64,000 bases of DNA, taken from assembly GCA_020633725.1 (NCBI GenBank), contig JACKDC010000004.1, positions 261,085-325,084 on the forward strand, read 5' to 3'. This stretch comes from Candidatus Latescibacterota bacterium (GTDB lineage: Bacteria; Krumholzibacteriota; Krumholzibacteriia; JACNKJ01). Below the pieces are notes generated by a model. The model did not search any database. It was given only the letters and a program-made list of their open reading frames with translations, and had not been told where the DNA came from. Positions within the stretch are counted from its first letter, which is position 1, and every line of letters starts with the position of its first letter. Position numbers and translations under genes: made by a program. Below, one piece after another: positions 1,990 through 63,395 of this stretch.

Positions 1990-3189
1990 ATGAAGCCGAC
2001 GATTGCCTCTGTTGGGAGTGCCTGGCTAGTCGTGATTGCCGTGCTGGGGGCGGGACCCGCGCGCTCTGCGACGCACCTGGTACCAGAGGGGCACTCGACG
2101 ATCCAGGGGGCACTGGCTGCTGCGGCGTCCGGCGACACGGTCAGCATCGCGCCGGGCACCTACTACGAGCACGACCTTGTGTGGCCGCCGGGGGTCCTGA
2201 TACTTGGCAGAGCAAGCAGCCCAGAACAGGTCGTGATCGATGGCCAGTTTCAAGGGCAGATCGTAGGTGGCGAGAACCTCGTCGGCGGGTCCGAGATCGG
2301 CTTTCTGACTCTCAGAGGTGGACTCGGGGCGGGGCTCTACGGCAGCGGGCTTCTGGCCAGCGGCGAAGCCTTCATCCATGACATCACGATCGAAGATTGT
2401 TCGGCCTCTCATGCGATCTACGGCATTGGCCTCTGTTCACTCGGCAAGATCACGATCTCGGACTGCACGCTGCGCCGAAACACCTCGACGGCTGCTGGTA
2501 CCCATGGCGGGGGGGCCTATCTGGCCAGCACAGGGCTAGGACTGACCTTCAGCATTTCGAATCTGGAAGTACATGAGAATGACGCGGAGCACGGGGCTGG
2601 AGTCTATGTGAACGGTTCACAGGGGACCATCTCCGGCCTGTACGCGCACGACAATCTTGGCTCCGGGCTCTCGGTATACGATGGGGACTGGGGGACCGGG
2701 CCCAGGGTCGAGAACTCCCTGTTCATCTCGAATGAGGGGTCGGGGGTCACCTTTGACGCAAGCCTGATCATGCAAAGTTGTACCGTGGTCGACAATGGTC
2801 CCGCGGGTTCCTGGATCGGCGGCATCAGTTGCGGTTCCACCTGGGACCATCCGCACAACCCGAGCATCACTCAGTGCATCGTGTTCGACAACAGAGGGTC
2901 GGGGATCAGCTGGTTGGATCCAACTTCGTTCGCGCTCAGCTGCAACGACGTCTACGGCAACGCCTACGCGAACTACGTCAACCTCGCCGACCAGACGGGG
3001 CTGAACGGCAACCTCTCCGAGGACCCGCGATTCTGCGGCCGCGGCGGCAGCCCCTACGCGCTCGCGGCCGACTCCCCCTGCGCGCCGGATAACAACGGCT
3101 GCGGCGTGCTGATGGGCGCCTTCCCGGTGGCCTGCGAGGGCACGGCCACGGAATCTCGCAACTGGAGCTCGATCAAGGCGCTGTACTGA
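1990..3189 (+). CDS. secreted right-handed beta-helix repeat protein (no CTD)
   Basis: ATG 1990 with GGAG 1985-1988 and/or TGCTACAAT 1973-1981 (possible leaderless start); signal peptide MKPTIASVGSAWLVVIAVLGAGPARSA; C-terminal NGNLSEDPRFC...DSPC..NNGCGV motif shared with CDS 60232. Confidence 0.7.
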   Translation: MKPTIASVGSAWLVVIAVLGAGPARSATHLVPEGHSTIQGALAAAASGDTVSIAPGTYYEHDLVWPPGVLILGRASSPEQVVIDGQFQGQIVGGENLVGGSEIGFLTLRGGLGAGLYGSGLLASGEAFIHDITIEDCSASHAIYGIGLCSLGKITISDCTLRRNTSTAAGTHGGGAYLASTGLGLTFSISNLEVHENDAEHGAGVYVNGSQGTISGLYAHDNLGSGLSVYDGDWGTGPRVENSLFISNEGSGVTFDASLIMQSCTVVDNGPAGSWIGGISCGSTWDHPHNPSITQCIVFDNRGSGISWLDPTSFALSCNDVYGNAYANYVNLADQTGLNGNLSEDPRFCGRGGSPYALAADSPCAPDNNGCGVLMGAFPVACEGTATESRNWSSIKALY

Positions 3190-4795: not shown

Positions 4796-4824
4796 TTGAC
4801 CTTCACCCCGGCATCCGGTAGATT
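4796..4824 (+). promoter_or_regulatory. sigma70-like promoter TTGACC-N17-TAGATT upstream of ABC operon
   Basis: Hexamers read from sequence; AGGAGG RBS at 4844-4849 precedes ATG 4861. Confidence 0.4.
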
Positions 4825-4860
4825 CTCCCTTTCCGCATCCTAGCAGGAGGTACCACGACG

Positions 4861-6723
4861 ATGAAGTTGGGACTGCGCGGCCTCGCCGTCACGCTGGTGT
4901 TGTTCTTCGCGGTGCAGGCGCAGGCCGAGCCCGGTGTCCCGGGCGTACCCCCCGAACTGGGCGGTCCCGGCTTCGAGGAGTGGGTGGCGGCGCACCCCGA
5001 GGAGGGGTGGGAGACCCGTGAGGCCACGGTGTCCGGCAACCCGAACGCGGTGAAGGGCGGCCGGCTGCGGATGTCCATCCCCGAGTTCCCCGCCACGCTG
5101 CGCACCGAGGGCAAGGACTCCAACAGCGTCTTCATCACCTCCGTGGCCGGACTGCTCTACGAACCCCTGCTCACCCTGGATTCGAACACGCTGGAGATCG
5201 TGCCCGTGCTGGCCACGCACTGGAAGACCTCCGAGGACAAGATGACCTTCAGCTTCCGCATCAACCCGGAGGCGCGCTGGTCCGACGGCGCCGCGGTGAC
5301 CGCCGACGACGTCACCGCCACCTGGCGGCTGCTCACCGACGAGGGCATTCTCATGCCCTACACGAACATCCTCTACGGCAAGTACGCGGAGCCGGTGGCG
5401 GTGAGCCCCTACCTCTTCAGCGTGACCACCACCGAGGAGAACTGGCGGCACTTCCTCTACTTCGCCATCTCCATGCGCATCCTGCCGGCGCACATCATCG
5501 GCGGACTCGACGGCAGCGAGTACCTCGAGGAGTTCCAGTTCAAGATGGTGCCCGGCACCGGCCCCTACCTGCTGAAGCAGGAGAACATCGACACGGGCCG
5601 CAGCCTCATGCTCACCCGGCGCACCGACTGGTGGGGCGCGAACCTGCCCGAGAACGCCGGCCTCTACAACTTCGACGAGATCGAGTGGCTCACGATCATG
5701 GACGAGCGCCTCGACCTGGAGAAGTTCAAGAAGGGCGAGCTGGACGTCTACGTGGTCAGCCGCGCGAGCTGGTGGGTGAACGAGTTCAACTACGACGAGG
5801 TGGAGCGCGGCGTCTGCCTCAAGCGGAAGGTCTACAACGAGAAGGTGCAGGGCATCGCCGGGCTGGCGTTCAACATGCGCGAGTGGCCCTTCGACGACAT
5901 CCGCATCCGCAAGGCCTTCGCCCACCTCTACGACCGCGACAAGCTCATCGACAAGCTCTTCTACAACGAGTACGAGAAGCTCTACTCCTACTTCCCGGCC
6001 AGCGTGTACGAGAATCCGAACAACGTGCACTACGAGTACGATCCCGAGCTGGCCAAGCAGCTCCTCGCCGAGGCCGGCTACAAGACCCGCAACGCGGACG
6101 GCTGGTTGCAGAACGACAAGGGCGAGATCATCGAGCTCACGCTCACCTTCGACACGCCGAGCTGGGAGCGCATCCACACGGTGCTGCAGGAGGATCTGCA
6201 GAAGGCCGGCATCAAGCTGAACCTGAAGCAGCTCACGTCGATCACGCAGTTCCAGAACAACATGGACCACAACTTCAAGCTGGCCTTCCAGAGCTGGGGC
6301 GGCCTCTTCTGGCCCAACCCGAACAGCTCCTTCCACTCCACCACGGCCGACCAGACGCCCTCGACGAACATCACCGGCGTGAAGGACGCCATGATCGACT
6401 CGCTGGCAACGCTCTACGACGAGGAGTACGACCCGGCCCTGCGCGTGGACTACATCAAGCAGATCGATCGCCGCCTCTCCGAGATCTGCCCCTACGGGCT
6501 CGCCTGGTACGGTCCCTTCCAGCGCGTGGTGTTCTGGAACAAGTTCGGCTACCCGGACGGCTACCTCGGCCGCACGGGCGACTACCTGGCCATCCAGACC
6601 TACTGGTACGTGGATCCCGCGAAGGAGAAGGCCATGGAAGAGGCCATCGCGGATCCGTCGAAGCGGCTGCCGACGGGCGAGGTCGAGGACAAGTACTGGC
6701 TGCGCAAGCTGGGCAAGCTCTAG
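4861..6723 (+). CDS. ABC transporter substrate-binding protein, family 5 (oligopeptide/dipeptide-type)
   Basis: Signal peptide MKLGLRGLAVTLVLFFAVQAQA; length and overall sequence resemble OppA/DppA/YejA-type SBPs; first of 5-gene operon. Confidence 0.8.
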   Translation: MKLGLRGLAVTLVLFFAVQAQAEPGVPGVPPELGGPGFEEWVAAHPEEGWETREATVSGNPNAVKGGRLRMSIPEFPATLRTEGKDSNSVFITSVAGLLYEPLLTLDSNTLEIVPVLATHWKTSEDKMTFSFRINPEARWSDGAAVTADDVTATWRLLTDEGILMPYTNILYGKYAEPVAVSPYLFSVTTTEENWRHFLYFAISMRILPAHIIGGLDGSEYLEEFQFKMVPGTGPYLLKQENIDTGRSLMLTRRTDWWGANLPENAGLYNFDEIEWLTIMDERLDLEKFKKGELDVYVVSRASWWVNEFNYDEVERGVCLKRKVYNEKVQGIAGLAFNMREWPFDDIRIRKAFAHLYDRDKLIDKLFYNEYEKLYSYFPASVYENPNNVHYEYDPELAKQLLAEAGYKTRNADGWLQNDKGEIIELTLTFDTPSWERIHTVLQEDLQKAGIKLNLKQLTSITQFQNNMDHNFKLAFQSWGGLFWPNPNSSFHSTTADQTPSTNITGVKDAMIDSLATLYDEEYDPALRVDYIKQIDRRLSEICPYGLAWYGPFQRVVFWNKFGYPDGYLGRTGDYLAIQTYWYVDPAKEKAMEEAIADPSKRLPTGEVEDKYWLRKLGKL

Positions 6724-12891: not shown

Positions 12892-13049
12892 TGCGTGTCC
12901 TCCGGGTGTGGGCCTTCGAAGCCCCGCTGGCGTGGGATCCTAGGGACCGGGACTCCCGCGGTCAAGCGCCCTCGGCGCCGTCTGTCCAGGTCCATCCCAG
13001 CAAGGACTGTGCTACAATTGTGGCGAACCGCCGGACAGGGGGGACCACG

Positions 13050-15017
13050 ATGAAGCTCGGGCCGGCCATTCTCACGCTCTTGCTGGCAACCTCCGTGGCC
13101 ACCGCCGAGGCCCAGACCTGGGAGGCGGACGACGGGATCTTCAACCCCAGCGGCATTCCCTCGCTGACCTTCTCGCAGCCCCGGCTGGCGGATCTCGACG
13201 GCGACGGCGACCTCGACCTGATCCTCGGCAGCTCCGTCGACGCGCCGCTCTACTTCGAGAACGTCGGCACGCCCACCAGTCCGGCGTTCGCGCGCGGGGA
13301 CGACATCCTCGCTCCCATCGATCCCCTGGACGCCGAGATGGTCGTTGCGGGAGACCTCGACGGGGACGCCGACCTCGACCTCGTCACCGGGGGCTACCTG
13401 GGCCTGCAGCTCTTCACCAATGTCGGCGACCTGCACGCGCCAGCCTTCACGCGGGTCGACGGCTTCTTCGCCGGCCTCGCGGCGGGTTCGCTCCCCGTGC
13501 CGACCCTCGCCGATCTCGACGACGACGGCGACCTGGACCTGCTGGTCGGTCTCAGCGAGGATGGTCGCCTCAAGTTCTATCCCAACCTCGGGACGCCCGT
13601 CGCCGCCGTCTTCACCGAGGCCTCGGCCACGATCTGGTACGACGTCGGCCTCTACGCGTATCCCTGGTTCGCCGATCTCGACGGCGACGGGGACGTCGAC
13701 CTGCTCTCCGGTCGCGACCAGCACGGCTTCGTCTACTATCGCAACATCGGCAACCCGACCACGCCGATCTGGCAAAGCGCCGACGCGCTCTTCACGGGCC
13801 TCGGCGCCGCCACCTACTGGAACTCGCCCTGCCTGGTGGATCTCACGGGCGACGGCCGGCTCGACCTCATCCACGGCACCGACGCGGGGCCCCTGCAGTA
13901 CTACGTCAACACGGGCAGTCTCGAAGTGCCCGCCTGGACCGCGAACACGAGTCTCTTTGGCGGCGTGCTCGACGTCGGCGCGGCCAGCTCGCCGTTCTTC
14001 TTCGACTTCGACGGCGACGGCGACCTGGATCTGGCGAGCGGCAGCCAGCTCGGTGACATCAAGTACTTCGAGAACACCGGCACGGCGGCGGCGCCAGCCT
14101 GGCGCGCCGACCACGCCTACTTCGCCGGCATCGACCACTCGATCTACTCGGCAATCACCCTGGGGGACGTGAACGACGACGGCCTCGCCGACGCGGTTGC
14201 GGGCGACCTGAACGGCCAGCTGTTCTTCCACCCCAACACCGGCAGCGGCTTCGACTATGACGGCGCGGTCTTCACGGGAATCAACCTCGGCGGCTGGTCG
14301 GTGCCGCGCTTCGTGGACATGGACGGCGACCTCGACCTCGACCTGGTGGCCGGCAACGAGGCGGGACAGCTGACCTATCTCGAGAACCAGGGGACCGTCG
14401 CCGCGCCAGCGTGGGTTGTCATCCCCGGCTTCTTCGGCGGGCTCGACGTGGGCAGCAACTGCTCGCCGACCCTCGGCGACTTCGACGGCGACGGCGACCA
14501 GGATCTGATCACGGGGAACCTCTCGCACGCCGTGCGCTACTTCGCGCACGAGGGAGCAAGCTGGGTGGAGGACGCGAGCGTCCTGGCGGGGATCACCGCC
14601 GGCCAGAACGCGGCGCCGGCGCTCGCGGATCTCGACGGCGACGGGGACCTCGACCTCACGATCGGCAACTACGGCGGCACCTTCAACTACTACCGGAACC
14701 CGGGGCCCCCGACCTCCGTGCCGGAGGAGAGCGTGCCGGCCAAGGGGCTCGCGCTCGCCGCCTACCCCAACCCGTTCAACCCCACGACCGTCCTGCGCTT
14801 CCGCCTGAACGTGCCGGCGGCGGTGGAGCTCGCGATCTATGACCTGGCCGGACGCCAGGTCCGAACGCTGTCGACCGGCCCCCTGAGCGCGGGCGATCAC
14901 GAGGCGAAGTGGGACGGCCGCGACGCGCAGGGCACGCCCCTGAGTTCCGGCCTCTACTTTGCGCGCCTGCGCGCCGGCGGCGACCAGAGCGCGACGAAGC
15001 TCGTCCTCCTCAAGTAG
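13050..15017 (+). CDS. FG-GAP/VCBS-repeat protein with T9SS-type C-terminal sorting domain
   Basis: ATG 13050 with AGGGGGG RBS and upstream TGCTACAAT; signal peptide; >8 repeats of DLDGDGDLDL; C-terminus YPNPFNPTTVLRFRL...SGLYFARL...KLVLLK. Confidence 0.75.
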   Translation: MKLGPAILTLLLATSVATAEAQTWEADDGIFNPSGIPSLTFSQPRLADLDGDGDLDLILGSSVDAPLYFENVGTPTSPAFARGDDILAPIDPLDAEMVVAGDLDGDADLDLVTGGYLGLQLFTNVGDLHAPAFTRVDGFFAGLAAGSLPVPTLADLDDDGDLDLLVGLSEDGRLKFYPNLGTPVAAVFTEASATIWYDVGLYAYPWFADLDGDGDVDLLSGRDQHGFVYYRNIGNPTTPIWQSADALFTGLGAATYWNSPCLVDLTGDGRLDLIHGTDAGPLQYYVNTGSLEVPAWTANTSLFGGVLDVGAASSPFFFDFDGDGDLDLASGSQLGDIKYFENTGTAAAPAWRADHAYFAGIDHSIYSAITLGDVNDDGLADAVAGDLNGQLFFHPNTGSGFDYDGAVFTGINLGGWSVPRFVDMDGDLDLDLVAGNEAGQLTYLENQGTVAAPAWVVIPGFFGGLDVGSNCSPTLGDFDGDGDQDLITGNLSHAVRYFAHEGASWVEDASVLAGITAGQNAAPALADLDGDGDLDLTIGNYGGTFNYYRNPGPPTSVPEESVPAKGLALAAYPNPFNPTTVLRFRLNVPAAVELAIYDLAGRQVRTLSTGPLSAGDHEAKWDGRDAQGTPLSSGLYFARLRAGGDQSATKLVLLK

Positions 15018-16770: not shown

Positions 16771-18627
16771 GTGCCGGCTCGCCAGCGACTCACCCGCCTC
16801 GCCGTCCTCGTCCTCTTCGCGCTCGTTCCGCTGCTCGGGATGAGCCCGACCGTCGACGCCAGCGCCGAATCCCCGTCGGGGGAGGCCGCCACGCCCGCCG
16901 TGAAGGCGCCCGACAGCGCCGCGCTGCTGGCGACGCAGCTCCAGGCGGAGCTCACGCGCCTCGGCGAGAACACCGCGGCCTTCGCGCGCAATCCGGTCTT
17001 CCGCCAGCAGGAGCACTGGTACCGCCCCTGGCAGGAGAATGCGATCGTCCTGCTCATGGATCGCGCGCTGGACAACTTCGACAACCTGCTGCTCACCGAG
17101 CTGGTGGATCTGCGCGGGCAGCTGGTGGCCGTCAATGCGCACGACGGCCAGGAAGCGCCGCTGTCCACGCACCTCCTCTATCTCGAGGACTACGGCCGCC
17201 GCCCCTGGTTCACCGCCATGGCCGGCGCCGGTCCCGACGCCGCGCCGCGTCTTGATGGCCCGCTGGCCGACCCGGACGTCTCGCGCATCTACCCGGGCGC
17301 CGCGCCCTGCCTGCGCGTCACGGTGCCCGTGACCGTGGACGGCGAGGTCGTCGCCCTGCTCAGCCACTGCCTGCGCTTCGCGCCGCTCAGCGAGAAGCTG
17401 TCGGCGGCCATGGCGGCGCCGGGCGCCGCACCGGGCCTCACGCTGGCCCTGCTCGCCGCCGACGGTCACCTGCTCGCCGGCACCGTGCCCGGCCTCGGCG
17501 TCAGCGAGAGCGCGCTGCACGAGTATCCCGTCGAGGCGCCGGGCATGAGCCCCTGGGTGCTGCGCGCCTACCTGCCGCAGACGGCGGGCTGGCGCAACAA
17601 GCTGGCCGGCATGCTGCCGCCCCTGCCCGACACCGCCACGCTGCTGCGCTGGCCGGGCCGCATCTTCGCGATCACGGGGACGCTGATCCTGCTGCTGCTC
17701 GGCGCCGGCCTGCTGCGCGCGCGGCGTGCGGCGGTTCGTCCGGCGAGTCCGGGCCGTCCGCCCATGGCCGTGCCCCGCGGTCCGCTGACGCCCGCCGAGA
17801 AGGCCCTCGAACTGCTCAACGCCTCCTTGGGCGCCATGCTCGGCACGCTGCACGCGCTGGCCGGCGGCAGCCAGGACCTGGCCGAGCGTCGCCTCGATCC
17901 CGCCATCGCCAGCGGGCCGGGCTCCACGCGCGGCGCCCTGCGCCGGGTGGCCGGCCTGCGCGAGCTGCTGGGCGGGCTGGACAAGCACGTGACGGGCTGC
18001 CGCGAGGGCGGTCTCGCCGCGCCGATGCGTCAGGCCGTGGACATCTTCGGCCGCGTGGGTCGCCAGATGGAGGCGCTGGTCGAGCCGCTGCTCGAGACCG
18101 AGCGCCGCCTGGCGAGCCTTCCGCGTCACGGCCTCCGGTCCGGCGCGGAGCTGGACAACTACCACGCGCTCAGCGCATCGGTGCACCGCACCCTCGGCGT
18201 GATGAGCGCGCTGCAGGGCGCGCTGGGACGTCTCCCGCGCAAGGTCCTGCGCGGCGAGTGGTCGCCCGGCGAGGCCGGCGCCAGCGACTGGCAGCGCGTC
18301 GTCGACGAACTCCACGAACTGCTGCTGCTGCTCGCCCGCCAGGTGGGCGCCACGCTCAAGCTCCTCGAGCTGATGCCCGCGAGCGCGGGATCGGTGATCG
18401 AGGTGCGCGACGTGAGCGCGGCCGTCCTGGCCGGCCGGTCGGCGCTGGCCGCGTCGGCGAGCGTCGGCGGGGCGGCGACCGTCGTCCTGGGCGGCGATGG
18501 GGACGGTGACTCCGCGGCGGCGGCCGAAGCGACCGCCGAGCCCGAGCCCCGCTATCACGAGGCGGCCGCCAGCGCGGCGGCGCCTTCCACCCCACGCTTC
18601 GAGGTGCTCGGCGGCAGCCGCAACTAG
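16771..18627 (+). CDS. hypothetical two-TM membrane protein with periplasmic sensor-like domain, no recognisable output domain
   Basis: Proposed GTG 16771 with AGGGGG RBS; N-terminal TM/signal LTRLAVLVLFALVPLLG, second TM IFAITGTLILLLLGAGLL, helical C-terminal region; no kinase/MCP motifs seen. Confidence 0.45.
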   Translation: MPARQRLTRLAVLVLFALVPLLGMSPTVDASAESPSGEAATPAVKAPDSAALLATQLQAELTRLGENTAAFARNPVFRQQEHWYRPWQENAIVLLMDRALDNFDNLLLTELVDLRGQLVAVNAHDGQEAPLSTHLLYLEDYGRRPWFTAMAGAGPDAAPRLDGPLADPDVSRIYPGAAPCLRVTVPVTVDGEVVALLSHCLRFAPLSEKLSAAMAAPGAAPGLTLALLAADGHLLAGTVPGLGVSESALHEYPVEAPGMSPWVLRAYLPQTAGWRNKLAGMLPPLPDTATLLRWPGRIFAITGTLILLLLGAGLLRARRAAVRPASPGRPPMAVPRGPLTPAEKALELLNASLGAMLGTLHALAGGSQDLAERRLDPAIASGPGSTRGALRRVAGLRELLGGLDKHVTGCREGGLAAPMRQAVDIFGRVGRQMEALVEPLLETERRLASLPRHGLRSGAELDNYHALSASVHRTLGVMSALQGALGRLPRKVLRGEWSPGEAGASDWQRVVDELHELLLLLARQVGATLKLLELMPASAGSVIEVRDVSAAVLAGRSALAASASVGGAATVVLGGDGDGDSAAAAEATAEPEPRYHEAAASAAAPSTPRFEVLGGSRN

Positions 18628-18647
18628 AGCTTCATGTTCCTCCCAAG

Positions 18648-18665
18648 CCCGCCCCCGGGGGCGAG
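18648..18665. repeat. REP-like palindrome CCCGCCCCCGGGGGCGAG (copy 4), 21 nt after stop of CDS 16771..18627; extra GGGGGCGGG half-site at 18694-18702
   Basis: Read from sequence. Confidence 0.55.
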
Positions 18666-18738
18666 TCGGATCTCCAGGGTCCGAGTCGCAGTCGGGGGCG
18701 GGTTCTCGCTTGCCTGCCGTTTTCTCCGCACTCGCCTC

Positions 18739-18767
18739 TTGACCTAGCCTCAATGATACTATACATT
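18739..18767 (+). promoter_or_regulatory. sigma70-like promoter TTGACC-N17-TACATT of duplicated element (copy 2)
   Basis: Same architecture and conserved atactatacatt block as 1831-1859. Confidence 0.45.
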
Positions 18768-18774
18768 AGCATCC

Positions 18775-18875
18775 TATGCAAGGGGTAAAGTCCCGGTTTT
18801 GTGGAGGTTGCACGGCAGCGCCTGGCCCGCACCTCCCGCCCCCGGGGGCGAGCAGGACCACCGGGTCCGGTTTTT
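18775..18875 (+). ncRNA. candidate small RNA (~100 nt): conserved 5' leader, REP palindrome, intrinsic terminator
   Basis: Starts ~7 nt after -10; conserved blocks shared with 1860-1968; ends in hairpin GGACCaccgGGTCC followed by TTTTT (18855-18875); no downstream + strand gene (convergent bat operon end). Confidence 0.3.
18835..18852. repeat. REP-like palindrome (copy 5) inside candidate sRNA
   Basis: CCCGCCCCCGGGGGCGAG. Confidence 0.55.
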
Positions 18876-18896
18876 CGATGGGGACGTCCGCGAGCG

Positions 18897-21539
18897 CTAG
18901 AGCGACGCGAAGCTGCCCTGGGGGATCCAGCCCTCGAGCTCGTCGCCGAGGTGGACGCGGACCCAGTTGCCGCGGGTCTCGTCGATGCGCAGTTCCGCGC
19001 CGGCGTGGATCTCGAAGAGTGTGAGGAAGTCCGTGCCGGGTCCGCTGGTCACGGACACCGTGGGCGAGAGGAGCACGGCCTCGCGGCCGCTCCAGTCGGT
19101 CCACTCCACGGCCCAGGCGGCGACGGACACCAGCGGCAGCAGCACGGCCAGTGCGATCAGCACGACGCGCAGCCGTCGCCAGGCGACGATCCGCAGCAGG
19201 CCCAGCAGCAGCAGCGCCGTGCCCAGCCAGAGCAGCACGAGCCCCAGCGCGGCGAGCTCGCCCGGCGAAACGTGCTGGCGCAACCAGCGCCACGCGCCGC
19301 TCCAGGCGCCGCCGCCGGTGCTGCGCGTGTCGCCGTCGGGTCGGCGAGAGCGCGCGAGGGCGAGGTTGTCGCGGACTTCGCTGTCGCGTGGGGCGAGGCG
19401 CTGCGCGCGACGGTAGTCGAGGATCGCGCGGCCCAGGTCGCCCTGCTGGTAGTAGGCGTTGCCGAGGTTGTACCAGAGATGGCTGTCCTCCACGCCTTCC
19501 CGCGCGAGGGACTCCCAGATGCCCGCCGCGGCCTGGAAGTCGCCGGCCTCGTAGCGCGCGGCGGCGTCGGCCATGCGCTGCAGCGTGTCGTCGGCGGCGT
19601 GGGCGGGCCGAGGCGCCAGCGCCAGCGCGAGCAGGAGGAGCGGCAGCAGGCCGCCCAGCAGGCCGGCGCCCTTGCGCGCCGGGCGCGTCTCGCGGTCGAG
19701 ACGCGGCAGCAGCGCGCGGGCCTGCTCGAGCAGCGTCGCCATGCGCGCGCCGCTGTGCTCGGCTGCGCCCGGAGCGTAGCGCGCGAAGTCGCAGGCGTCG
19801 AGCAGTCGGCGCGTCTCGGTGCAGGCCTCGTCGGAGGCGCCCGCGCGGCGCAGCGCGCCCTCGGCGACGTCCCCGGTCAGGCCCGCCGCCGACAGCTTCA
19901 GCCGGTCGGCCAGGTAGCCGCGCAGGCCGCTGGCCAGCTCGGCGCAGAAGCCGCCGAAGTCGCCCGCGGCGTGAGCCTTCTCCGCGGCGCGGAGACGTTC
20001 CTCGGCGCTCTTGCGCGCGCCGCGCGCACGGAAGCCCGCCGCGTCGGAGAGCTGCGCGTCGCGGCGGCGACGCCAGAACCAGGTGCCCGCCAGCAGCGGC
20101 CAGGGCAGCGCCAGCGCGGTCCAGAAGCCGGCCGAGCGGGGGAAGCGGGCGCCGTCGCCGGCGAGCGGCGGGTCGGTCTTGATGTGGTGGATGTCCCTGC
20201 CCAGCAGCTCCACGCGGTCGGGCGTGAGGTCGCTGAAGACCACGGGTTCGCTGGCCTCCGTCTTGCCCGGCGCCACCTGCAGCGTGACGCCCTTCGTCTC
20301 CACGCTGCGATAGCGGCGCTGATCGGGGTCGAACCAGGAGTAGCTCACGCCGGGCAGCGAGAGCTCGCCCTCGCGGCGCGGCACCACGACGCGGGTGTAG
20401 CGCTTCTGGACCTGGATGGCGTCGCCGTCCACCTGCGTGTCGCTCTGCAGCTCGGCGTCGTAGGCCTTGAAGTCGACGCCGGGATCGTAGTCCGGCTCGG
20501 CGAAGGCGCGCGGATTGCCGAAGCCGCTGAGCGTGAGCGTCACCGTGATCGGCTGGCCGACGGCGTAGGGGCCGGGGTCCGTCTTCAGGGACACGCTGAA
20601 CTGCTGCGCCACGGTGCCCTTGAAGCCGGCGGGGCGGCCCGCGTCGGGCAGGGGCAGCACCGTCACCGGCACGGGCGGCGTGCGCAGCACCTTCTCGGGG
20701 CCGGCGTCGAAGGCGAAGAACTCGAAGCGGCTGCGGTCGCGCAGGCGCAGCTGGATCTGCGCGGGGCCGATCTCCAGCTGGCCCGGCTCGCTGGGGAAGA
20801 GCGCCGCGCGCAGCTCGGTGGCGGCGTAGTTGACGCCGTCCACCTGGCGGTAGCCGCTGATCTCGTCGCCGAGGGGTTCGGACCAGAAGCCGGTGAAGTC
20901 GGGGGCGCCGTACTGCGGCTGGCCGATGAAGCTCACGGTCGGCCGGCGATAGAGCGCGAAGTGATGCGTGAGCTGCTGGCCCACGTAGACGGAATCCGCG
21001 TCCACCCAGGAGCGGATGAAGACGTCGCGGTTGCCCGCCGTGGCGCTCTCCTGCTGCACTGGCGGCGCGCTCGGCTGGCCGGCCGGCGGCACGCCCGCCT
21101 GCGGGGCGCCGGAGGTCGCGGGGCGCACGTTGACGCGCATCGCGCGCGTCTCGTAGATCTGCCCCTTCACGCGCACGGGGACGGCCGGAATCGTGAGCTC
21201 GCCGCTGCGCAGCGGCACCAGCGTGTAGCGGTAGGTCTTGCTGCTGCTCGCCTGGCCGTTGACCCAGGAGAAGTTACTGGAGCTGGAGCTGCCCACGAGG
21301 CCGAAGTCGTCGAGTTCGGGCAGCTCGGGCGCATCGCTGCCGCGCATCGCGCCGGAGACGACGATGGTATAGTTGAAGGACTCGCCCTCGCGGATGATGC
21401 CGCCGTCCAGGGTGGCCTCCACCTGGACGTCGTCGGCGAGGGCGCGCACGGGCCAGGCGCCTGCCACGGCGGTGGCGAACAGGACGGCGAGGCAGAGCGC
21501 CGGCGCCCTCCGCGTGATCCGCTCCAGCGTCGACATCAC
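18897..21539 (-). CDS. batD: BatD-like protein continuous with BatE-like TPR + SH3b region (apparent BatD-BatE fusion, ~880 aa)
   Basis: ATG overlaps batC stop (ATGA); N-terminal signal MSTLERITRRAPALCLAVLFATAVA, large periplasmic domain, TM FWTALALPWPLLAGTWFWRRRR; same frame continues without stop into TPR segment and C-terminal SH3b-like domain (…WVRVHLGDELEGWIPQGSF). Confidence 0.65.
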   Translation of the reverse strand: MMSTLERITRRAPALCLAVLFATAVAGAWPVRALADDVQVEATLDGGIIREGESFNYTIVVSGAMRGSDAPELPELDDFGLVGSSSSSNFSWVNGQASSSKTYRYTLVPLRSGELTIPAVPVRVKGQIYETRAMRVNVRPATSGAPQAGVPPAGQPSAPPVQQESATAGNRDVFIRSWVDADSVYVGQQLTHHFALYRRPTVSFIGQPQYGAPDFTGFWSEPLGDEISGYRQVDGVNYAATELRAALFPSEPGQLEIGPAQIQLRLRDRSRFEFFAFDAGPEKVLRTPPVPVTVLPLPDAGRPAGFKGTVAQQFSVSLKTDPGPYAVGQPITVTLTLSGFGNPRAFAEPDYDPGVDFKAYDAELQSDTQVDGDAIQVQKRYTRVVVPRREGELSLPGVSYSWFDPDQRRYRSVETKGVTLQVAPGKTEASEPVVFSDLTPDRVELLGRDIHHIKTDPPLAGDGARFPRSAGFWTALALPWPLLAGTWFWRRRRDAQLSDAAGFRARGARKSAEERLRAAEKAHAAGDFGGFCAELASGLRGYLADRLKLSAAGLTGDVAEGALRRAGASDEACTETRRLLDACDFARYAPGAAEHSGARMATLLEQARALLPRLDRETRPARKGAGLLGGLLPLLLLALALAPRPAHAADDTLQRMADAAARYEAGDFQAAAGIWESLAREGVEDSHLWYNLGNAYYQQGDLGRAILDYRRAQRLAPRDSEVRDNLALARSRRPDGDTRSTGGGAWSGAWRWLRQHVSPGELAALGLVLLWLGTALLLLGLLRIVAWRRLRVVLIALAVLLPLVSVAAWAVEWTDWSGREAVLLSPTVSVTSGPGTDFLTLFEIHAGAELRIDETRGNWVRVHLGDELEGWIPQGSFASL

Positions 21540-47100: not shown

Positions 47101-47548
47101 GGGCACCAGTCTTGGTCTGGATTCCGAAGAGCGTATCGACGGAAGCGAACGCGTCCTCGCCGAAGTAGTCGAGGATCGACTTCGCCATTCCACTCACATC
47201 ACCCGCCAGCGAGTCGACGACGATGTTGGCAAACTCGCGCAAGTCGTCTTCGTCCCATCGGGAGCCAGGGGCCCCAGTGGCCCCAGGGGCGCCCGGCTCC
47301 CAGCAGAGGAAGACCGTGAAGTGCTTGTTGAAGATGGGGTTCCCGGCAAAGACCGTCGAGTCGACGGGCGCGAGAGAATCTCCATCGGCGCAAATCAGCT
47401 GGAGGCCATCATCGCAATCTCGGAACTGGGTCGCGTGGACCAGCGAAGAGAGGGAGAGCAGCGCTACCAAGCTCAAAGCGCGCAGGAGCCAAACAAAAAG
47501 CGCCAGCAGTTGCCGGCGCGAATTGGCGGGATTCGGTCCATTCGTCAT
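44153..47548 (-). CDS. large secreted protein with single HExxH zinc-metallopeptidase-like motif and T9SS-type CTD (lower-GC island)
   Basis: ATG 47548 with AGGAGGG RBS; signal peptide; FAHEWQHVCHH motif with downstream FESFDE; C-terminus WPNPFNGQIHFRYRAP...SGVYLYRI...KVIYVK; 1131 aa. Confidence 0.65.
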   Translation of the reverse strand: MTNGPNPANSRRQLLALFVWLLRALSLVALLSLSSLVHATQFRDCDDGLQLICADGDSLAPVDSTVFAGNPIFNKHFTVFLCWEPGAPGATGAPGSRWDEDDLREFANIVVDSLAGDVSGMAKSILDYFGEDAFASVDTLFGIQTKTGAPAGQDTTYTHFGIYIFDTCRVINATHEYVTAHIEGQDGQFLTPWEVARDAFAHEWQHVCHHSWQRVDRSTSIFESFDEMCSVLSASKYGLDGSDTHTSPYDTPVSNNGSGSHYASACQNAVPVTQDSLLGSGCLSRFGNVYNDWAMFAIYLDNVFTLPGEALEDSLVYRWIRTYTEDEGHRTYLHNFPGLGIALDVPDLDAFFSSSSASPHQRVNEVFRAYGLAKFLNLQSPTSDEEIYQWLGEGDDPDGYQPQALYNFLQDSNGVCYDNIQAFPPYHTCSSDRQVVSGWQFSSDYWPTDCDADDYSWFVPEWNKRRLVGVQTFASNYLVFQPPDTSGVDLSVSFRFLDEYPCMICPTDPDSAYALQSVTAAYEGKVRLAVDLIGYDLPFAPDDLDPRDNGLDVYGERKRSIETHWIEPAPGQVVDFNVTDFGKGNSDAVALVLTLVPKEGVAGNLNPIMLPYEYRFQTVPDTVVSLPDTIGGTDCHVVVEAGETAWVDGEVRILPGCDLTVEEGARVYFRNATSKIVADGGSLLVRGTAEAPVEFLPSILPGDTNTDYAGLFAENLGLLDLDYCRLNDAEQIVADSALVRISYSTLYLADTNDNAIVLDLQNGPREPALEYCEIPSVNRIWIDSGVGRSAEIANCTISQRENFQSLLSLPPPLVYCMRGTLSVSNTEMYFLRTGIQIGEKFMPHQPMAYLGPNLTIEPHSAAVAPETGIQCRGSSRVYAQYCDIAGPRVGAKNWDSAQLSLDHVDIHLCDYGVINYAWSGTVDLGAPGQSAGGNFIAPLTTSADCWTYVQGTPASCYEDAAEVEMVRIYNATTNVIPAEGNAWGTCEGFGEDYGIDCMCPDAFFKPDSTRVDFGPWTAQNSLFACGTSPTDPGFYIGIESAAPPPEGAWPNPFNGQIHFRYRAPGAPARLQVFDILGREVRRLSATIGENGDQLFIWRGDSEQGQPVSSGVYLYRIVGEAKTLKGKVIYVK

Positions 47549-47701
47549 ATCGGCCCTCCTGGCTAGTGGTAATCATAGCTCAGGAATCAGCACCTGTACA
47601 GGGGGGGGGCGGCGATTTGGCAATGAAAACATGCCGAGGCAGGCGGCCTGGTGGGCACGGGCGGTGTCGGCCTCGGGGGCGGACACCGGAATCGCCGGAC
47701 G

Positions 47702-49230: not shown

Positions 49231-49304
49231 TACCGCCGACGGGACTTGAACCCATGACCTCCTGGGCCACAACCAGGCACTCTAGCCAACTGAGCTACGG
49301 CGGC
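49231..49304 (-). tRNA. tRNA-His (anticodon GTG)
   Basis: Reverse complement GCCGCCGTAGCTCAGTTGGCTAGAGTGCCTGGTTGTGGCCCAGGAGGTCATGGGTTCAAGTCCCGTCGGCGGTA folds as cloverleaf; anticodon loop TTGTGGC. Confidence 0.85.
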
Positions 49305-63258: not shown

Positions 63259-63293
63259 CCGCCCCCGGGGGCGAGTAGGACCGCTTGGTCCGG
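63259..63293 (+). terminator. REP-like palindrome (copy 7, CCGCCCCCGGGGGCGAG) followed by hairpin GGACCgcttGGTCC; terminator-like module after CDS 60232..63258
   Basis: Same two-hairpin arrangement as 18835-18875 but without T-tract. Confidence 0.4.
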
Positions 63294-63395
63294 ATTCTGC
63301 GCTTGCGGCGGGTTCGAGGTTTACGTCCACGCCGGGAAGCCGATAGACTCCCTTTCGCCATCCCAGTCCGGCGGTGGCGAAGGGGGGAGAGCGGC

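Follow-up and report, generated by a model that had tools for sequence, protein, structure and literature searches.

A strain-specific promoter-to-terminator-like unit at the end of a bat operon and its relation to the leader of a variable beta-helix gene

OmrA and OmrB are paralogous sRNAs of the Hfq type that have a conserved 5' seed, a variable centre and a terminator. The REP/BIME clusters of E. coli and the Correia MITEs of Neisseria, for their part, can carry promoters or terminators. Rearrangement of genomes can also create orphan units and sRNAs that are specific to one lineage, such as EcsR1 and SesR2 (Raghavan et al. 2015, PMC4350180). This origin of sRNAs, in intergenic regions that were reshaped by rearrangement, is the closest documented parallel to the locus described here, which occupies positions 18739-18875 of a stretch of 64,000 nt that was analysed as a whole (the window). 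The published cases and this locus are alike in being short units that run from a sigma-70 promoter to a Rho-independent-type end, in a rearranged intergenic region and in one lineage only. They differ in that the published cases were shown to be transcribed, one of them with a phenotype, whereas the unit at 18739-18875 is a predicted one, and in that its promoter, rather than having arisen de novo, is paralogous to another in the same genome.

The unit lies in a gap between convergent genes, as a preliminary description of this DNA had noted: a 618-aa gene with no Pfam match (16771-18627, + strand) and a fused batD/batE gene (18897-21536, - strand; Pfam BatD and TPR), which is the last gene of a bat operon ordered MoxR-DUF58-BatA-BatB-TPR-BatD/E. 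Its promoter is directed at the 3' end of batD/E, about 120 nt away; no + strand gene follows, and downstream of the unit the - strand is taken up by the bat operon. With the neighbouring genes converging in this way, the unit is not a 5' UTR, as that description had already concluded. The window has a GC content of 72%, and positions 18736-18792 form its longest AT-rich island; the second longest, at 1835-1879, coincides with a related sequence near the start of the window, which we refer to as copy 1 (the unit beside the bat operon being copy 2). Past the end of the 618-aa gene stands a composite GC hairpin of 60 nt (18646-18705), made up of a GC palindrome, an inner GGATC..GGTCC stem and an inverted half-palindrome. 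It has a folding energy of -51.2 kcal/mol (z -4.3), and none of 200 shuffled sequences was equally stable. The hairpin is common to the sister strains, with homology reaching 18706, and it is likely to act as a bidirectional terminator for the 618-aa gene and, in the sister strains, for a 909-aa cassette gene. Very stable long hairpins directly after convergent or neighbouring gene ends occur both here and at 1674-1735, where the Peptidase_C1 gene, with its stop at 1669, is followed by the long inverted repeat GCGAGTGCTTTGCC...GGCAAAGCACTCGC.

The promoter motif that had been proposed, TTGACC-N17-TACATT, is indeed present on the + strand, with the -35 hexamer at 18739-18744 and the -10 hexamer at 18762-18767. 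It agrees with the sigma-70 consensus at 9 of 12 positions, its near-consensus hexamers fall within the 16-18-nt spacing that defines this promoter type, and it is the sole sigma-70-like site in 18000-19600 (0.0 +/- 0.2 in shuffles). Both strands of the 64-kb window together contain only 12 such sites, this one included. That the organism uses sigma-70-type signals is shown by the tRNA promoter in the window (TTGACA ... TACTAT) and the bat promoter (TTGTCC-17-TATATC, with TGn ahead), which are of the same consensus type. Transcription from the motif would start at about 18774. The Bacteroidetes-type -7 box TAnnTTnG matches both copies of the core described below, but with 7 occurrences in the window versus 11 expected it shows no enrichment. 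Visual comparison with the consensus sequences gave only weak partial matches to sigma-54, sigma-32 and ECF promoters, to Fur/IdeR boxes and to a dif/Xer site. Promoter-like sites followed on the same strand, within 300 nt, by a terminator-like site number about 3 in the window against about 0.5 expected; the pairing at 18739-18875 is therefore suggestive, not unique. Other sigma-70-like sites paired with a hairpin and T-run within about 100 nt on the same strand were seen at 47501-47600 (- strand) and 4796-4899 (+ strand); the pair near 4884 falls within the start of an SBP_bac_5 gene and is probably noise.

The downstream end of the unit is built from repeated sequence. The GC palindrome that had been placed at 18835-18852 is there, as the 14-nt, REP-like and terminator-like repeat CGCCCCCGGGGGCG at 18837-18850, and it recurs in the window far beyond chance, with 8 copies (1776, 1953, 3223, 18650, 18837, 38582, 59511 and 63260) against 0.26 expected, often extended to 18-24 nt. 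Five of the eight lie 2-107 nt past stop codons, two within the copies of the element and one in a long ORF (59511). A further palindrome of this sequence is found inside the 909-aa cassette gene of the sister strains. It is either a dispersed repeat of the REP kind or a terminator of stereotyped sequence with no U-run. Behind it, about 100 nt after the promoter and on the same strand, comes the expected terminator-like structure: a hairpin, GGACC-accg-GGTCC (18855-18868), and TTTTT at 18871-18875, the whole (18855-18875) reading GGACCaccgGGTCC plus T5. The stem comprises 5 bp, four of them GC, and is followed by GGTTTTTCGA; this is the form of an intrinsic terminator with a weak stem (-8.4 kcal/mol; z -0.88 against shuffles). 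Like intrinsic terminators, this structure has five U in a row behind a GC-rich hairpin, here with a second strong hairpin ahead; the unlike features are a U-proximal stem of just 5 bp (-8.4 kcal/mol) and, in the related modules at 18650 and 63260, the lack of a U-run. These modules belong to a longer gene-end sequence, CGCCCCCGGGGGCGAG..GGAYC-N4-5-GGTCCG, which occurs at 18650, 18837 and 63260. Two of its copies, 18650-18684 and 63260-63295, stand directly after stop codons, and a clean U5 run is present only in the copy at 18837. The terminator half of the unit is a repeated gene-end module and not specific to the element. The promoter unit is also bracketed by a 25-nt, 76% inverted repeat (18678-18702 / 18835-18859); this repeat is itself composed of the generic GC-palindrome module, which occurs alone elsewhere.

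The preliminary description had further presented the unit as a stand-alone copy of an element found elsewhere in the window, and this holds in part. What the two copies share is a 31-nt core on the + strand, ATACTATACATTnGnATCCnnnnCAAGGGGT, at 18756-18786 in copy 2, where it covers the -10 together with some 13 nucleotides from the start of the transcript, and at 1848-1878 in copy 1, which lies 112 nt upstream of a beta-helix gene (1990-3189) and sits between the GC palindromes at 1776 and 1953. The cores are identical at 25 of 31 positions, with perfect blocks of 12 and 8 nt, and a strict local alignment of both regions returns the core only (score 40 versus 18.5 +/- 2.5 in shuffles). The core matches twice in the window and never in shuffled sequence. 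Upstream of it the similarity is weak but significant (z 3.6), comprising GGGGGCGGG, GCACTYGCC and the -35 sequence TTGNCC, and the GC palindrome is also common to the two. By contrast, the body between core and palindrome (50-74 nt) is not significantly similar between the copies (z 0.9), and in this respect the unit is no copy. The putative transcript body of copy 2 (18787-18836, + strand) is not conserved, and no similar sequence was found elsewhere in the window or in the compared loci. The overall geometry is shared: a GC palindrome or half-palindrome, 62-65 nt, the core, 57-81 nt, and a GC palindrome.

The core alone appears to be under constraint, because it has been kept and the adjoining body has become as unlike as random sequence. 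Both copies carry a TTGNCC -35 at 17 nt although their spacer sequences differ, copy 2 (TTGACC) having a better hexamer than copy 1 (TTGCCC). The core also holds a weak imperfect dyad, GATAC-N9-GYATC, and promoter-like hexamers on its - strand (TTGTCA-17-TATTCT in copy 1, TTGCAT-17-TATCAT in copy 2). A rightward promoter is nonetheless the favoured orientation, since a gene then lies downstream of copy 1 for it to drive, and the -35 stands at 17 nt in the two copies alike. Taken together, the sequence comparison argues that the core would be functional at both sites, most simply as the -10 and the operator or initial transcribed sequence of a rightward sigma-70 promoter. Two other readings of the core were considered and rejected. 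A small-protein gene does not fit, as the ATGs of the two copies (18776 and 1867) differ by 1 nt in their distance from the conserved CAAGGGG and no frame is shared; an ORF on the - strand, 18632-18832, passes through the hairpins. Nor do the two cores, as direct repeats 16.9 kb apart, represent the attL and attR of a genomic island, the intervening gene order being syntenic in a distant relative.

Comparison with related genomes indicated that the entire unit is strain-specific. Megablast alignments with sister strains (99.4-99.6% identity in the flanks) run exactly up to 18706 and resume at 18899, and the right border of the variable segment is the base that opens the batD/E stop codon. A contig from sample SRR12358675, which may contain the strain of the window, is 99.97% identical. 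The intervening 192 nt (18707-18898) hold the whole unit and were found only in the genome of the window among the compared assemblies. At the same site the sister strains carry 2.86 kb with a beta-helix/FlgD_ig gene of 909 aa, which has the same strand as the bat operon and its own TGnTATAAT promoter (L012:7937-10792), an allele present in at least 10 assemblies from several samples. In three contigs the sequence breaks off exactly at 18899, and two others contain nothing but the cassette; because of these contigs, the pattern reads as an assembly-bubble signature, with both alleles within one sample. The batD/E stop codon itself differs by allele, TAG versus TGA, with only the first T in common. 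In distant relatives, whose 618-like gene has about 44-53% amino acid identity, the site varies further: in GCA_016873475.1 a beta-helix gene of 1113 aa separates batD/E from the 618-like gene, another relative has a 437-aa FlgD_ig gene at the syntenic site, and a third has only 8 nt there. Because sister strains and a distant relative carry a gene at this position, the gene-containing state is probably ancestral, and the 192-nt allele would be derived and strain-specific. A simple internal deletion of the 909-aa cassette was rejected as its origin, since no homology links the ends of the one allele to those of the other; for the same reason the 192 nt are better described as a replacement. 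The junctions at 18706 and 18899 show no direct repeat or target-site duplication, and no donor locus was found. The core is absent from the distant relatives' loci examined, and a search for diverged cores with up to 7 mismatches, over 307 kb of loci and then the further loci L046-L054, returned none beyond the known copies. The core pattern gave 5 matches in GTDB species genomes, all in low-GC or unrelated taxa, and copy 1 itself was not returned, so that the source MAGs apparently lie outside this collection. It gave 20 matches in JGI metagenomes, all of them chance or coding occurrences, for example in topoisomerase genes.

Copy 1, in turn, precedes a gene that is itself variable. The secreted beta-helix gene at 1990-3189 (+ strand; Shine-Dalgarno sequence GGAGA, signal peptide) exists in at least three alleles, the others being represented by L039:939-2170 and L044:120-1346. 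Its central ~900 nt (2209-3109) have 44-50% amino acid identity between alleles, with breakpoints at 2208 and 3110 common to all of them. The promoter, the leader and the first ~220 nt of the gene are conserved across the three alleles; for promoter, leader, signal peptide, C-terminus and flanks the identity is 91-99.7%. On sequence grounds this looks like population-level cassette exchange within the gene. Since the 1990 gene and the 18706/18899 site both vary, each core copy adjoins a strain-variable beta-helix cassette. The -35/-10 spacer of copy 1 contains a (GAA)3 repeat (1839-1847). One haplotype of the sister MAG GCA_020633715.1 has (GAA)2 there (L014:5850-5858), which shortens the spacer from 17 to 14 nt; a change of this kind could switch the copy-1 promoter on and off or alter its strength. 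In distant relatives, a conserved gene for a secreted protein of ~165 aa (motifs CYAIIDVPE and FECGD.D; L040:611-1102, L041:2486-2989) stands ahead of the orthologous beta-helix gene. This gene is missing in the species of the window, where the copy-1 intergenic region takes its place, and the relatives have no core.

Searches for a known or unusually structured RNA gave little. At the gathering threshold, the only Rfam 15 match in the whole window was the tRNA at 49231-49304, and with E<=10 the best match in 18600-18950 reached 19.3 bits against a threshold of 49, an artefact of the palindrome. The folding energy of neither copy is better than that of shuffled sequence (z +0.48 for copy 2, -0.52 for copy 1), and a two-sequence alifold consensus, with too few sequences for covariation, contains the invariant pairs and the palindrome only. 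A cis-regulatory 5' leader or riboswitch was rejected, there being no + strand gene downstream, no conservation of the body and no folding signal (z +0.48). The preliminary description had singled out a conserved, single-stranded CAAGGGG as the target-pairing region. The minimum free energy (MFE) fold of copy 2 and the consensus fold of both sequences pair part of CAAGGGG with the 5' AUCC, which speaks against this; the stem, of 4 bp, is weak and is lost when the first 30 nt are folded alone. The complement of the seed (ACCCTTG, in full the octamer ACCCCTTG) occurs once elsewhere in the window against 1.2 expected and is uninformative.

The reading that we put first, with about even confidence, is that the unit is an orphan: a sigma-70-type promoter with the start of a leader, closed by a gene-end terminator and brought about by the loss or replacement of a cassette. 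Its -10 region and first ~13 transcribed bases would be paralogues of the sequence that forms the promoter and opens the leader at the 1990 gene, a generic gene-end module (GC palindrome, short hairpin, U5) would close the unit about 100 nt downstream, and the 192-nt allele would have replaced the 2.86-kb cassette at a recombination-prone, palindrome-rich junction. RNA polymerase may then start near 18774 and stop at 18875, yielding a non-coding RNA of about 100 nt that would amount to an 'empty' leader. A short non-coding transcript from 18739-18875 is, on this sequence evidence, probably made. The core most likely matters at the level of DNA, as a -10 and operator or initial transcribed region that would be co-regulated with the 1990 gene, and less likely as a structured RNA. 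Two observations sit uneasily with an orphan promoter: the ends of the 192-nt allele are unlike those of the cassette, so that it is not simply what an internal deletion leaves behind, and copy 2 has both the better -35 and a clean U5 run, as expected of a selected stand-alone unit. The latter would suit the proposal of the preliminary description, a trans-acting sRNA gene of ~100 nt, whose 5' seed AUCC....CAAGGGGU would pair with mRNAs and of which copy 1 would be a 5'-UTR-borne paralogue. Its promoter and terminator motifs are correctly ordered on one strand, of the related modules copy 2 alone has a clean U-run, and its -35 is the best of them, the 5' ~13 nt have been kept between copies while the body has diverged, and a rearranged intergenic region is a known route to new sRNAs (PMC4350180). 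Most of the comparative evidence nevertheless fails to bear the proposal out. The unit is absent from the ~99.5%-identical sister strains, which have the 909-aa gene instead, and from all relatives examined; its body is not conserved and its structure is neither conserved nor unusually stable (z +0.48); part of the proposed seed is base-paired in the MFE fold; ACCCCTTG is found once elsewhere in the window versus 1.2 expected; and no Rfam family matches. We therefore hold an sRNA gene to be unlikely. A conserved 5' part with a variable middle is compatible with an sRNA because the paralogous OmrA and OmrB show this pattern, and here, too, two copies share a promoter-proximal 5' end and a terminator hairpin and differ in the middle. 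OmrA and OmrB are, however, adjacent, both stand-alone and conserved across enterobacteria, whereas one copy here is the 5' leader of a gene and the other is strain-specific, the shared 5' part is ~13 nt long and the 3' hairpin is a generic dispersed repeat.

The palindromes that bound both cores raise the alternative of a repeat, MITE-like or BIME/REP-cluster-like, that has an internal promoter and moves or recombines between intergenic sites, the two copies being insertions of one family. Agreement with this comes from the same palindrome-core-palindrome geometry in both copies, the 25-nt, 76% inverted repeat around copy 2, the dispersal of the GC palindrome (8 copies) and the presence or absence of copy 2 between near-identical strains. 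As in REP/BIME clusters and Correia elements, GC-rich palindromes lie just past genes, and a unit of ~150-180 nt, with inverted palindromic sequences on either side and promoter-like hexamers within, varies between strains. The locus is unlike them in that homology is limited to the 31-nt core, and unlike a typical REP in that its GC palindrome is perfect and loop-less and has no conserved GTAG head. Only two interior copies occur in ~64 kb plus flanks, no target-site duplication is present at 18706/18899, the interior beyond the core is non-homologous, scans of public collections gave no match, and the bounding palindromes, which also stand alone as gene-end hairpins, need not be the ends of an element; such a mobile repeat seems to us quite unlikely. 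If it is the core alone that counts, its AT-rich sequence and weak dyad could mark an operator or a recombination-related site at a cassette junction, with no meaningful transcript. Conservation is indeed limited to a short block with an imperfect dyad, promoter-like hexamers occur on both of its strands, and both copies lie next to strain-variable cassettes. Yet the dyad arms are just 5-6 bp long and mismatched, the copy-1 breakpoints (2208/3110) lie away from the core, and a -35 fixed at 17 nt on the + strand in both copies better fits a promoter, all of which makes a purely DNA-level site improbable. The direction of the promoter suggests a further role, in which transcription that continues beyond the weak terminator (5 bp) and enters batD/E from its 3' end, on the opposite strand, would modulate termination or stability of the bat operon by transcriptional interference or RNA duplex formation. 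Such a cis-antisense effect would profit from the ~120 nt that separate the promoter from the 3' end at which it is directed, and from the short terminator hairpin (5 bp, -8.4 kcal/mol, z -0.88). Against it, two successive hairpins and a U5 run intervene, and the sister strains have the same bat operon without the unit; we consider this role very improbable indeed.

Should the unit be transcribed, an uncultured bacterium of the FCB group would have a non-coding RNA that is very young and specific to one strain. The union of a promoter module with a generic terminator through gene loss or replacement would then illustrate either the birth of an sRNA gene or the persistence of a promoter relic. 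The polymorphic cassette sites are more notable than the RNA unit, and the wider context that they provide may outweigh the RNA: two population-level cassette sites for secreted beta-helix proteins have identical GC palindromes and the same promoter core. This hints that the cassette sites could reflect recombination-driven diversification of surface or secreted proteins. On a more speculative view, to which we attach little probability, the core and its bounding GC palindromes would together form a portable, insulated expression site for hypervariable secreted beta-helix/FlgD_ig genes of this Latescibacteria-like lineage; the palindromes would serve as terminators and as recombination substrates, and copy 2 would be a site left empty or switched off after cassette exchange. 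Were this so, the RNA of the empty site could be co-regulated with the occupied site, or could titrate its regulator. Large secreted proteins with C-terminal FlgD_ig domains are abundant in the window; one FlgD_ig-tailed protein gene, at 12906-15017, contains nine FG-GAP/VCBS-type repeats of ~160 nt each, at 13184-14714.
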